Both the position numbers and the translations under genes were made by a program. 64,000 nt of DNA, taken from the sequence record NC_028847.1; one strand, 5' to 3'. Below, one piece after another: positions 42,011-44,996 of the stretch; position 1 is the stretch's first letter; every line of letters starts with the position of its first letter. This DNA comes from Escherichia phage QL01. The notes under the pieces are model-generated. The model had not been told where the DNA came from. It worked only from the letters and a program-made list of their open reading frames with translations, and ran no database searches.

Positions 42011-42014
<4 letters not shown>

Positions 42015-42493
42015 ACACCAAGTTCCTTATAAAGTTCTTCACGGCAAGTTTTAAGGGTTTTACCTGATTCGTAAGCAACACTTTCAGGAACATCACCGAG
42101 GGTTACTGCGGATTGCATTTGTCCATGGCGTTTAGCCGCATATTCAAAACTTTTTACTAGCTCGCGAATACGTTCTTTTTCATTGTACTCTTCAATGAAT
42201 TCAGGGTATTCCCAAACCGGGCGCATCATACGATACCACTGTTGGATGGTGATATAATTACTTCCATTCAAATTAATAATCTGCGAAGGCTCAATAGACC
42301 CTGGAGCATAAAAAGTTACCTGTCTTACTACATCAATACCGTCCACAATAGCCCAAGCAAAATTGAAAGTTGCCTTCTTTTCAAGCGGTGTACTTGCACA
42401 GGACCCTAATTTTAAGAGCTTTTGTAATACAGGAGATTTAACGCCTGAAATGTATTCAGGCTTAGCCACAAAACTGTTATCACGTAAAGTCAT
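42011..42493 (-). CDS. hypothetical protein (early gene)
   Basis: Internal ATG (MTLRDNSFVAKPEY...) with GAGGAAAT SD, downstream of GTTTAC-N18-TATAAT promoter. Confidence 0.55.
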
Positions 42494-42527
42494 AATAATT
42501 TCCTCAAATTTTATAATCCGTAGGAGC

Positions 42528-42557
42528 ATTATACTCTGCTCCCAAGAGTTTGTAAAC
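42528..42557 (-). promoter_or_regulatory. early promoter GTTTAC-N18-TATAAT
   Basis: Consensus motif upstream of 42011..42493 ORF, overlapping end of 35-aa ORF. Confidence 0.55.
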
Positions 42558-42664
42558 TACTTTCCGAAAAGACCGCCAATACATATACTAATCAGAATTC
42601 CAAAACAAAAGCAGACAAAACCAAATCTAACAATATCCCATCCATCAGTACACGCTTCAATCAT
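42557..42664 (-). CDS. hypothetical small hydrophobic peptide (35 aa, predicted single transmembrane segment)
   Basis: Manual read: MIEACTDGWDIVRFGFVCFCFGILISICIGGLFGK; ATG overlaps o-spanin TGA (ATGA) with GAGGAG 8 nt upstream. Confidence 0.45.
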   Translation of the reverse strand: MIEACTDGWDIVRFGFVCFCFGILISICIGGLFGK

Positions 42665-42951
42665 TTGCACTTCTCCTCTTTTAGACCGGAACGATAATAA
42701 CATAACATGGATTTCTGGTCTTGTACATATCTTTTTACGTCATTCAACCAAATACGATGTTCTTGGGAATCTTCAAATGGCATTCCAACCCAAGCTTTAC
42801 CATCGATTACCTTAACCTGCCATTTAACATTATGTTTGGCAATAGGTTGTGGCCATGAAGGATGTAGTTGTTGCTTAGGCACTACAGGGATGTCCTGGGC
42901 ACATCCAACTAACAAGCCAATAGATAATACTACCACAGATAATTTAATCAT
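42661..42951 (-). CDS. o-spanin (outer-membrane lipoprotein, pseT.2-like)
   Basis: Signal peptide with lipobox LLVGC, 96 aa, overlaps i-spanin end; T4 pseT.2/pseT.3 spanin pair as recalled. Confidence 0.8.
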   Translation of the reverse strand: MIKLSVVVLSIGLLVGCAQDIPVVPKQQLHPSWPQPIAKHNVKWQVKVIDGKAWVGMPFEDSQEHRIWLNDVKRYVQDQKSMLCYYRSGLKEEKCK

Positions 42952-43301
42952 TCTGTAATGCTCCTGAAGTCTTCTGTAAAGGAATCGAAGGACTTGTTGA
43001 TTTGTTTTTCGACCAATCCTGGCTTACTTGCCACCACGTGCGCCTTCTTCGAATCTTTACGGAGCTTTTCATTTTCTACCTTAATTTTATCCATTCGGGC
43101 ATTCATTTCAGTAGTACGGAATTCAATATCAGAGTATTGGCCACGTAGGTCATCTACGGCTTCGGCATTCTGTTTAGCCGTTTGCTGGGTTGTTTTCAGT
43201 TCTTCAGTAAGGGTATCAATACGACTTGATTGATACGAAATAAAACCATAAGCACCTACTGCAATGGCTCCAGCTAAAAGGTAAATACTTAATTTAGACA
43301 T
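42948..43301 (-). CDS. i-spanin (inner-membrane, pseT.3-like)
   Basis: N-terminal TM helix (LSIYLLAGAIAVGAYGFISY) followed by coiled-coil periplasmic domain; 117 aa. Confidence 0.8.
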   Translation of the reverse strand: MSKLSIYLLAGAIAVGAYGFISYQSSRIDTLTEELKTTQQTAKQNAEAVDDLRGQYSDIEFRTTEMNARMDKIKVENEKLRKDSKKAHVVASKPGLVEKQINKSFDSFTEDFRSITE

Positions 43302-43789
43302 TTGGTAATAATCTCGATGATGTCATCACGTGACAGGGAATTAATAAGAACCGTTTTAGGATTTTCACACTGAATTTTATACGTTTCAAACATAAAACAT
43401 AATTCTTCAGCAGTATGGTAAGGACTTGAAATGCCAAGGCGATTAAACTTGTCGCTTAATGGGTCGCAAATCAAATAGAACGTGATGCCTGAGATTTTAA
43501 CATTAGGTTGGCTAATATTAATAAACACCTCGGCATCGTATTTGGAAAGGTTGTTTTGGAGAAACTCGACCATAGAGTTAACAGCTTGAGGCATTGCTTC
43601 ACGCTTTTCTTCAGCATAACGGGTAGAGTATTCTTTTTGCTTGATTTTCTTTTTAGCATTTTTAGCTAAAGTAACACGAAGATCGGTCAGGTAACCTACT
43701 GCACGAGAACCTTTAAAAACTTGGATGCCGTCAGTAGAGTCACCAAAAGCCTTAACAACCATTTCGTTAGTAATCATTTGCATATTCAT
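43289..43789 (-). CDS. hypothetical protein at alc position (possible Alc-like)
   Basis: 166 aa, position between rnlA and spanins where T4 has alc (167 aa as recalled); sequence identity not verified. Confidence 0.45.
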   Translation of the reverse strand: MNMQMITNEMVVKAFGDSTDGIQVFKGSRAVGYLTDLRVTLAKNAKKKIKQKEYSTRYAEEKREAMPQAVNSMVEFLQNNLSKYDAEVFINISQPNVKISGITFYLICDPLSDKFNRLGISSPYHTAEELCFMFETYKIQCENPKTVLINSLSRDDIIEIITKCLN

Positions 43790-43819: not shown

Positions 43820-43848
43820 ATACTAACACGTCATGAGGAGATGTAAAC
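43820..43848 (-). promoter_or_regulatory. early promoter GTTTAC-N17-TAGTAT
   Basis: Motif between rnlA stop and 43289..43789 ORF. Confidence 0.5.
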
Positions 43849-44996
43849 TACTCTACCACAATTTCTTTCAAATATTTTTCAGGGATTTGGGCCTTATGAT
43901 TTTTCAAGAACACAGAGTTAATCTGGTCCATGACCGTATCATAATTAATACCGCCTACGTACGCCTGCATAAGAATAGAGAACAACCCTGGGAAGTCCTT
44001 AAGGATTAGCTGTCCAGTAACGGCATAGTCTTTACGGTCGCGACCTTTGAGTTGAGAGTAAGCTGCTTCTAACAAGGCTAATGATTGTTCTAGGTAATCT
44101 AAATGGATGCGTTCAAAGGCATCGATTTTCTCGATAGCAAAGGAATCTGTACTGAACAGACCACGAAGGTCATCAGTTCCACCAGCCACTACAACTTCAA
44201 ACAAACGTTCGTTGTTGTTAATGGAATCTTTGGTATGATGCAGTGCACTGTACCAGGCGGTTTTGAGTTTAAAGAACGTACCATCTTTCAGTACAAAGAT
44301 GAAACCTTCAATACCTTCTTGTTTACGGATGTTTTCTACGAAATCACCTTCAGCGAGGTCATAGCTTTCAACCAAATGCTTACGCAGGGCCCCATCTTTA
44401 AACAATTCAGCATACGGAATATATTCACCTGTTTCATTATTACGAACGTTTAACAGGATGAGGTTTGTTTCTTGGTAAGCCAGCACGATACGGTTGGTAG
44501 GTGCTACATATTCAAGGTTGCAGGTATACCCAGCTTTGGTGATTTCTTCTAGACGTGCGGCAAAAGCCTCGTTCTCAGGGAGACGAAGGAACCGTAAAGA
44601 ATCATGCACCATTGATGAATGGATAGAGCCTTTAGATTTAACAGAAAGATACTGTCGGTCCATGAATGTAGAAATCAGAGAACCATCTTCCTTAGCCATT
44701 ACGAGGTCGATATTTTCTGGCGACAAATCCAGACCGATAGTCATAGGGTTTTCGTCGAGGTTAAAGAACTTTTGCATAGGACGAGCGGCAATACGTACAG
44801 GACCTTTCTCGTCCATTTCAAACATAATGCCTCGGCACTCTAGTGCGCCGTCTTCCAACCAATCACTGTATGATGCGTAGTTATAACTAAAGATGCGATA
44901 GTTGACTCCTAGAGCACTCTGAAAGTCTTTAAAGAAGAACTTAGATTTAGTCGAGTTTTTAACCAGGGCCATCAAGTTATCATATAATTCAATCAT
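43848..44996 (-). CDS. rnlA: RNA ligase 1 (RnlA, gene 63)
   Basis: RIFSYNYASYSDWL, ALECRGIMFEMD, KEDGSL adenylation lysine motif, FVAPTNRIVLAYQE, ILLNVR.NETGEYI match T4 Rnl1. Confidence 0.96.
   Translation of the reverse strand: MIELYDNLMALVKNSTKSKFFFKDFQSALGVNYRIFSYNYASYSDWLEDGALECRGIMFEMDEKGPVRIAARPMQKFFNLDENPMTIGLDLSPENIDLVMAKEDGSLISTFMDRQYLSVKSKGSIHSSMVHDSLRFLRLPENEAFAARLEEITKAGYTCNLEYVAPTNRIVLAYQETNLILLNVRNNETGEYIPYAELFKDGALRKHLVESYDLAEGDFVENIRKQEGIEGFIFVLKDGTFFKLKTAWYSALHHTKDSINNNERLFEVVVAGGTDDLRGLFSTDSFAIEKIDAFERIHLDYLEQSLALLEAAYSQLKGRDRKDYAVTGQLILKDFPGLFSILMQAYVGGINYDTVMDQINSVFLKNHKAQIPEKYLKEIVVE

Follow-up and report, generated by a model that had tools for sequence, protein, structure and literature searches.

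Escherichia phage QL01, a T4-like phage of the genus Dhakavirus, carries a gene of 35 codons directly after its o-spanin gene (positions 42557..42664 of the 64-kb stretch of QL01 DNA analysed here, hereafter the window; this gene and all features below lie on the minus strand unless stated otherwise). Comparison with relatives shows this micro-gene to be a real protein-coding gene, on which purifying selection acts in two phage genera. The reading we favour, with a probability of roughly 55%, is that this genuine gene encodes an accessory, host-adaptive inner-membrane microprotein, which acts on a membrane target of the host or of the phage and is not a structural spanin subunit. Action on that target would be by helix-helix contact. 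An envelope-related role is a secondary, unproven possibility.

Comparative evidence for a coding gene

A tblastn search recovers full-length copies of the micro-gene, with amino-acid identities of 65-100%, from 86 phage records. These all come from T4-like enterobacterial phages, and the records that were opened belong to Dhakavirus, Gaprivervirus or unclassified relatives. The DNA comparison used 22 extracted loci, which gave 20 distinct sequences. In these, the gene is 35 codons long, or 34 through one in-frame 3-nt deletion (the sole indel), with start and stop unchanged, and this length is held across a synonymous divergence (dS) of ~0.8. The pooled Nei-Gojobori ratio of nonsynonymous to synonymous substitution (dN/dS) is 0.22-0.25 in the frame of the gene versus 1.01 and 0.92 in the other two forward frames; in the same genomes, the o-spanin gene gives 0.29 and the i-spanin gene 0.49. 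The alignment has 15, 14 and 29 variable columns at the first, second and third codon positions, respectively. Of the six frames, this one alone stays free of stops across the 14 variants tested, and 15 residues are invariant (M1, I2, E3, C5, G8, D10, F19, C20, F21, G22, I23, G31, F33, G34 and K35).

By itself, an open reading frame (ORF) of 35 codons is within chance, as dozens of similar size occur in the window. It is the comparative evidence (86 copies, frame retention and dN/dS) that argues against a chance ORF. On the two strands of the window there are 24 ATG ORFs of 25-60 aa with a grand average of hydropathy (GRAVY) of at least 1.1, and an SD-like (Shine-Dalgarno-like) motif was found at the micro-gene only. 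An earlier reading of the window from its letters, the sequence-only reading, had proposed a translationally coupled small gene here and had set conservation in relatives as a check. Both have held: the start/stop overlap, the SD motif and the dN/dS support the coupled gene, and the check is answered by the 86 full-length copies and by a frame open in 14 of 14 variants.

Three other accounts of the same bases were rejected. An RNA element in place of a gene is opposed by the Rfam search, which gave no RNA family match at the micro-gene, and by the absence of excess folding energy, since its RNA folds no better than shuffled sequence (z = -0.08). An opposite-strand gene (a 150-aa ORF at 42363-42815 on the plus strand) fails because the antisense frames gain stops in several relatives. 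The idea of a hypervariable cassette was dropped, as the diversity of the micro-ORF (pi 0.21-0.29) falls inside the range of the spanin genes (0.09-0.40); it appears high only beside the unusually conserved 3' end of the o-spanin gene and the promoter cassette.

Coupling to the o-spanin gene

The ATG of the micro-gene (42664-42662) overlaps the TGA of the o-spanin gene (42663-42661) in the four bases ATGA (42661..42664), and its own TAG stop lies at 42559-42557. A GAGGAG SD motif (42673..42678; AAGTGCAA) stands 8 nt before the ATG, inside the o-spanin codons for ...KEEKCK. The overlap, the motif with its spacing and the count of 35 codons are exactly as the sequence-only reading gave them. The GAGGAG site is retained in relatives as AAAGAGGAG, AAAGAGGAA or AAAGAGGGG, and both it and the ATGA overlap also precede pseT.1 in T4-like loci. 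Because start and stop overlap behind a strong SD motif, ribosomes can reinitiate after o-spanin termination or start de novo. In the ORF list of the window, the frame appears as a 48-aa ORF (42557-42703) that begins at an upstream in-frame ATG within the o-spanin gene; relatives conserve and annotate the 35-codon start, not the 48-aa start.

The junction varies in some relatives. In Gapriverviruses of the VR7 and VR25 types (loci L022 and L067), a 1-nt indel gives the o-spanin the C-terminus ...RCHD* instead of ...RCK* and makes its gene overlap the micro-ORF by 8 nt instead of 4 (ATGATTGA), with the micro-ORF unaffected. In Escherichia phage vB_EcoM_005 (L013 and L063), a deletion of ~100 bp cuts the o-spanin gene to 63 codons and recreates the ATGA junction with the micro-ORF; the record is short (155 kb), and the truncated o-spanin may stem from faulty assembly or represent a natural variant with a defective spanin.

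The genes upstream extend this arrangement. The gene for the host transcription inhibitor Alc (alc, 43289..43789) overlaps the start of the i-spanin gene (42948..43301; a pseT.3 homologue of 117 aa, phrog_739, E=1.6e-37), which in turn overlaps the o-spanin gene (42661..42951; a pseT.2 homologue of 96 aa with the lipobox LVGC, matching the Rz-like spanin family phrog_812, E=1e-43). Both spanin genes are annotated in WG01 and JS98. The successive overlaps of alc, pseT.3, pseT.2 and the micro-gene are 13, 4 and 4 nt. Judged by these overlaps, the four genes are a coupled string, with alc as its first cistron and the micro-gene as its last; the micro-gene stops right where a promoter/stem-loop cassette resembling the PeSL cassettes of T4-like phages begins. 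Further upstream, a promoter-like site precedes alc (43847-43820), and rnlA (43848-44996) lies upstream of that site.

The predicted product

The product of the micro-gene is the peptide MIEACTDGWDIVRFGFVCFCFGILISICIGGLFGK, for which a single transmembrane helix is predicted. It has a GRAVY of 1.34, and its best segments of 17-19 residues reach a mean Kyte-Doolittle hydropathy of 1.9-2.6. An apolar stretch of ~20 residues, with a mean hydropathy of 2.5 over its best 17-19 residues, lies between D10 and K35, and the head is net-negative. From the single sequence, AlphaFold2 returns one helix (residues 3-33) with a mean predicted local distance difference test score (pLDDT) of 86. We infer a single-pass membrane helix, as the hydrophobic segment is predicted to be long enough to span the bilayer. 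In this layout, residues 1-10 would form an acidic head at the N-terminus and residues ~11-33 a hydrophobic core, with Lys at the C-terminus; the invariant motif FCFGI lies in the core, and Gly residues stand at positions 8, 15 and 22. The sequence-only reading had described a short acidic head and a hydrophobic segment of ~20 residues and had named transmembrane prediction as a check. Sequence, hydropathy and AlphaFold2 agree with the description, and hydropathy and AlphaFold2 give the single hydrophobic helix.

The peptide does not have the make-up of a known lysis protein. It is not an Rz1-like o-spanin, as Cys5 (MIEAC) has no preceding n- or h-region and the sequence holds no periplasmic domain. 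Nor is it an Rz-like i-spanin, which requires a coiled-coil domain of ~80 or more residues; the protein stops 2 residues past the hydrophobic segment. It also lacks the marks of a holin: the C-terminus is only G-K, and there is no match to a Pfam holin family. To our knowledge, 35 aa is well below the length of known holins.

MgrB, AcrZ and MgtS of E. coli are small regulators with a single transmembrane domain. The small single-transmembrane-domain proteins of E. coli have no homology to the product of the micro-gene, which is phage-encoded. By analogy with these regulators, its likely mode of action is binding to a larger membrane protein within the bilayer. Pf3 coat protein has an acidic N-tail, a transmembrane segment and a basic C-terminus, and inserts N-out; a similar layout makes an N-out/C-in orientation likely for the peptide, although it is uncertain because of R/K13. 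Insertion into the inner membrane would be post-translational, via the signal recognition particle (SRP) and SecYEG or YidC, since a peptide of 35 residues is too short for co-translational SRP capture. Membrane proteins below ~40-45 aa insert post-translationally; two of E. coli, YohP (27 aa) and YkgR (33 aa), are passed by SRP to SecYEG or YidC in this way, and the mRNA of yohP is enriched at the membrane (PMC7549839). The peptide is like YohP and YkgR in size class and in its single transmembrane helix, and the same SRP-dependent insertion is expected of it.

Annotation and database matches

The gene had been described as unannotated, which does not hold for its relatives. The 1.7 kb around it are 99.5% identical to Escherichia phage WG01, whose RefSeq record has the identical coding sequence as 'hypothetical protein, ORF227' (YP_009323426.1). 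The exact peptide is deposited in NCBI and UniRef (A0A0K1LL27) for WG01, QL01, PSD2002 and ABTNLS3. It matches phrog_23289 (function unknown) at E=4.9e-25, with residues 1-35 on profile positions 1-35 of 35; this is its sole PHROG match, with none to a spanin PHROG or to phrog_2347. The family of phrog_23289 and WG01 ORF227 is the same gene as the micro-gene of the window, with no difference between them. The gene itself, already deposited as a hypothetical protein, is therefore not new as a gene call. Many other records, among them those of JS98, VR7, MN01, Bp7, SP18 and KIT01, omit it.

Beyond these records, little resembles the peptide. Profile searches of Pfam, NCBIfam, PADLOC and PDB with 13 variants gave no match (in NCBIfam, PADLOC and PDB, zero at E<=10), and a homologue search with the 48-aa extended form found one 35-aa relative only. 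An exhaustive phmmer search against 1.84 billion representatives returned one 34-aa family member and one protein with SRCR repeats. In the latter, a metagenomic protein of 410 aa (P0002), the core CSDGWDLxEAGMVCRxLGY resembles CTDGWDIVRFGFVCFCFG of the peptide (phmmer E = 1.6e-7). We judge this resemblance to be fortuitous: four repeats are summed in the score, and the segment of the peptide is a transmembrane helix. Scans of IMG/VR with junction patterns gave only the isolate genomes already found. In the literature, we found no paper on the phrog_23289 family and nothing specific on Dhakavirus small proteins, pseT.1 or T4 ribosome profiling.

What follows the o-spanin gene in other T4-like phages

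The slot after the o-spanin gene, whose family occurs in 1259 phage records, is filled in several ways. In Tequatrovirus-like phages, Mosigvirus and Jiaodavirus it holds PseT.1, a soluble protein of 70-76 aa (phrog_2347, which the T4-type protein matches at 5.5e-42). T4 PseT.1 (72-76 aa) has the identical position, the ATGA overlap with pseT.2 and the same embedded SD motif as the micro-gene, but it is soluble and hydrophilic (GRAVY about -0.65), unlike the product of the micro-gene. The embedded motif and the overlap occur in Tequatrovirus-like and Mosigvirus loci; in Jiaodavirus Merci the start lies 11 nt past the stop. In the literature searched, no paper mentions T4 PseT.1. In RB49 and RB16 the polynucleotide kinase gene (pnk) comes directly after the o-spanin gene, and at some loci the gene is succeeded by just a hairpin or by the next gene.

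Origin of the micro-gene from pseT.1 by deletion or frameshift was considered and rejected. The first two codons (ATGATT) and the stop/cassette junction agree, and Mosigvirus PseT.1 ends at the same TAG/TTTACAAACTC junction. The interior is like shuffled controls: local alignments of the micro-gene with pseT.1 score as the controls do for both DNA and protein (z about 0).

Two further sets of tiny hydrophobic ORFs occupy the slot, which we call families B and C, the micro-gene being family A. Family B (22-24 aa; 33 records) occurs in Moonvirus, Gelderlandvirus, Tegunavirus and phage CkP1, with such members as MDPLVVLILCVTFYKICKLAMR, MNTIIFIAILVFFYKVIKLMLQS and MDPLVVLIxCVTxYKIxKLxxx (L040:946-1014, L043:988-1059, L044:501-569, L046:501-569, L039:943-1014 and L047:501-572). 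Family C (28-32 aa, e.g. MRKFTLGAKLFCFGLFIAAVACTVALAMVVTF; ~44 records) occurs in Karamvirus and Kanagawavirus (L078, L079, L082, L083, L068 and L070, at ~1470-1590). The ORFs of both begin -18 to +2 nt relative to the o-spanin stop. In their own frames, dN/dS is 0.16 for family B and 0.17 for family C, as against 0.5-3.6 off-frame, all from small samples. By these ratios, families B and C are under purifying selection. Across the genomes compared, then, the T4-type o-spanin gene is followed by a hotspot at which tiny hydrophobic cistrons under selection recur.

Family B has no PHROG match, its exact peptides are absent from a collection of 15 billion proteins, and a gene call is absent from all opened records with annotation at the slot. 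In Salmonella phage S16, RefSeq gives gp141.1 (L045:482-619) as a 45-aa ORF whose frame differs from that of the conserved 22-aa micro-ORF; it has no PHROG match and is probably a wrong-frame call. Family C is annotated as hypothetical (e.g. CC31p227 and PG7 gp201). On the IMG/VR contig L081 (IMGVR_UViG_2974737508_000001, ~1493-1650), a C-type MTLGATLFCAGLVVALLACVAALVVLVV and a B-type MTGLIAFGMILIFAYKAIKLILKS stand in tandem after the o-spanin gene.

In hhalign, families A and C align with a probability of 52% (P = 1.5e-4 over 14 columns) through the common motif G-x3-FC[FIA]G[LI], and family B is unrelated to A (probability below 1%) or to C. Families A and C may therefore be related via their FCxG motif. 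Family C shares with the peptide of the window its slot, where the ORF overlaps or adjoins the stop of the o-spanin gene, and its single hydrophobic helix. It differs in its basic N-terminus (MRKF..., against a 10-residue acidic head), in the placing of its second Cys and in the C(UUCG)G hairpin downstream, where the window has a promoter hairpin. Homology between the two is tentative. Family B shares the slot, the coupling to the o-spanin stop and the hydrophobicity, but it is shorter, has a Lys-rich C-terminal half and bears no sequence relation to the peptide.

The recurrence of such cistrons in this slot might result mainly from being translated last, on mRNA that the co-translational export of the two proteins encoded upstream would already keep at the membrane. 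Co-expression with these proteins may also favour the slot.

The cassette after the stop

At the base next to the stop of the micro-gene begins an early-promoter-like site, TTTACA-17 nt-TATAAT (42528..42556), which matches 11 of 12 consensus positions. A hairpin, GGAGCA-GAGTATAA-TGCTCC (42523..42542), holds the -10 hexamer in its loop and is conserved in relatives. Promoter and stem-loop together form the PeSL-like cassette (42494-42556), a dispersed repeat: the 67-nt element occurs at 1295 places in 726 records of T4-like phages, 2-4 per genome. It is found directly after pseT.1 in RB69 and is also present in T4. The stem-loop of the window encloses the -10 box; in the original descriptions of PeSL, the stem-loop reportedly lies ahead of the promoter. 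The window element is like PeSL cassettes in its TTTACA-N17-TATAAT promoter, in its stem-loop and in its repetition at several loci per genome. The PeSL promoter consensus is TTTACW-N17-TAYWAT (PMC4122927), and these early-promoter/stem-loop cassettes mediate modular shuffling in T4-like genomes (PMC4122927; PMC2839356). Placed next to such an element, the micro-gene is, by position, at the edge of a recombination-prone region.

In the record of Escherichia virus TH41 (L029, MT446412, marked UNVERIFIED; ~915-940), the hairpin loop is inverted, reading GGGAGC-ATTATACTCT-GCTCCC versus the usual GGGAGC-AGAGTATAAT-GCTCCC. This would delete the gene-strand -10 box, and could reflect a stem-mediated inversion or an assembly artefact.

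Downstream of the cassette lies a gene of 160 aa (42011..42493; phrog_4482, function unknown), which has its own SD motif and promoter and stands outside the coupled string. Several relatives annotate it with 172 aa, from an ATG at 42529-42527 that overlaps the -10 hexamer. That start is doubtful, because an SD motif of its own (GAGGAAATTATTATG) precedes the 160-aa start at 42493, which would be on the transcript from the cassette promoter. After this gene come a 99-aa ORF and then pnk. A late promoter for the unit of alc, spanin genes and micro-gene was rejected, as the late motif TATAAATA does not occur on the minus strand between 37612 and 48985.

Accessory microprotein or part of the lysis machinery?

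The sequence-only reading had suggested, from the position beside the spanin pair, a small membrane protein linked to lysis or envelope function. The small membrane protein stands, as a prediction. The link to lysis, drawn from position, is partly supported, and there is evidence against a direct spanin partnership. Some envelope or expression link is favoured by the different tiny hydrophobic ORFs that recur at this same junction in other genera. Part of that evidence comes from T4, whose PseT.3 and PseT.2 alone complement lambda RzamRz1am (PMC6139136). Another part comes from comparing MX01 (Dhakavirus) with SP18 (Gaprivervirus): their peptides are 100% identical (99% in nucleotides), whereas protein identity is 34% for the i-spanins and 65% for the o-spanins. 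The identical peptide beside divergent spanins indicates that the micro-gene recombines independently of the spanin genes and works beside very different i-spanin transmembrane domains. Along positions 160-1000 of the two loci (L033 and L034), the mosaic boundary is sharp, with nucleotide identities of 57% for the i-spanin gene, 72% for the o-spanin gene, 99% for the micro-ORF and 90% for the cassette. This mosaic points to a recent cross-genus exchange of the micro-gene.

A role in lysis could still take the form of a third, regulatory or assisting part of the T4-type spanin or lysis apparatus. It might tune the insertion or oligomerization of the i-spanin, spanin activation, or holin and membrane energetics, at a ratio to the o-spanin fixed by coupling. 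The overlap of the micro-gene start with the o-spanin stop speaks for this, as does the rarity of hydrophobic micro-ORFs with an SD motif otherwise (1 in the window). So does the fact that, over at least seven T4-like genera, this very slot is taken by at least two sequence-unrelated families of tiny hydrophobic ORFs, with two such ORFs in tandem on L081. Cys5 is invariant, and T4-type o-spanins rely on disulfide chemistry (PMC6139136). There are also precedents in LambdaSo Lcc6 (bioRxiv 10.1101/2024.01.23.576932) and the Mu releasin gp25 (PMC9239132), small membrane-anchored proteins needed beyond the canonical lysis components. Like the product of the micro-gene, these are small membrane factors, and their genes lie beside holin, endolysin and spanin genes. 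However, the step at which they act is that of the holin or SAR-endolysin, within cassettes that include those genes, and in the phage of the window the holin and endolysin genes are elsewhere in the genome. Neither has sequence similarity to the peptide (the Pfam search was negative), and Mu gp25 has 99 aa with a 73-aa cytoplasmic domain (DUF2730), unlike the 35-aa peptide (PMC9239132). Against a part in lysis, moreover, T4 spanins function in the lambda system without such a peptide (PMC6139136). In T4, Mosigvirus and Jiaodavirus the slot is occupied by the soluble PseT.1, in RB49, RB16 and others it is empty, the peptide does not co-vary with spanin type (MX01 versus SP18), and no late promoter lies near the unit. 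ATGA overlaps are commonplace in T4-like genomes, and neighbouring genes there are often functionally unrelated, as with alc upstream and pnk downstream here. We consider a lysis accessory possible but doubtful. Because T4 spanins suffice, slot contents vary, MX01 and SP18 are mosaic and the neighbours are heterogeneous, we favour an accessory microprotein over a spanin part.

Two further readings are less compatible with the data. Small Sgl proteins are encoded by ssRNA phages, and known examples carry a transmembrane domain; that of phage M is said to have 37 aa and to inhibit MurJ. In size and hydrophobicity the peptide is similar to these single-gene lysis peptides and to type I toxins such as TisB and Hok. 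It could thus be a membrane-active toxin, or a mini-holin-like peptide, that permeabilizes or depolarizes the inner membrane or inhibits an essential envelope-biogenesis enzyme, and its heptad-spaced Gly residues and conserved Cys could aid oligomerization. Yet the unit with alc is driven by an early promoter, and an early depolarizing toxin would lower phage yield. The peptide has neither a holin-type charged C-terminal domain nor a cationic amphipathic character. It matches no known toxin family in PADLOC, Pfam or NCBIfam, and a search for Hok/TisB-like type I features found neither an antisense promoter-like site close to the ORF nor an Rfam antitoxin RNA. We regard a toxin as improbable. 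A protein without function is more improbable again: here, only translation through to the promoter/hairpin cassette would matter (for mRNA protection or Rho avoidance), or the ORF would be a decaying pseT.1 remnant. The gene does border a recombination-prone hyperplastic region next to the PeSL-like cassette, it shares its first two codons and its stop-cassette junction with pseT.1 in T4 and Mosigvirus, and several genome annotations leave it out. Selection on the protein argues otherwise, since dN/dS is comparable to or tighter than that of the spanins, 15 residues are invariant, hydrophobicity is kept and length is constant. Similarity to pseT.1 is not detectable in DNA or protein, and two other micro-ORF families have the same signature.

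Some points weigh against the accessory microprotein that we favour. The dN/dS values come from short sequences, and the pairs pooled in them are not independent of one another. The charges of the peptide are ambiguous for its orientation, with basic residues at R/K13 (N side) and K35 (C side). Finally, as families A and C are possibly homologous, part of the recurrence in the slot may reflect common descent and not repeated recruitment.

Significance

With the micro-gene, the little-explored class of phage micro-membrane proteins gains a further validated member. More worth following than the single gene is the recurrence of the slot across genera, including family B, which lacks a gene call in the annotated records that were opened. 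Together, these cistrons give researchers on phage lysis and on small proteins a defined, easily testable set of candidates; they also flag systematic gaps in annotation, along with the one probable wrong-frame call in S16. Two questions can now be tested, namely whether spanin operons include an accessory membrane factor, and whether the last-translated position on a membrane-tethered polycistronic mRNA brings a benefit to very short membrane proteins. A broader proposal, which we put forward tentatively and think unlikely, is that T4-type two-component spanin operons hold an optional third cistron, not recognized before: a single-helix inner-membrane micropeptide, repeatedly recruited to the site that overlaps the o-spanin stop (at least two unrelated families in at least seven genera), that would modulate envelope disruption or its timing. 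If this were true, the spanin system would be a three-part system in many phages.

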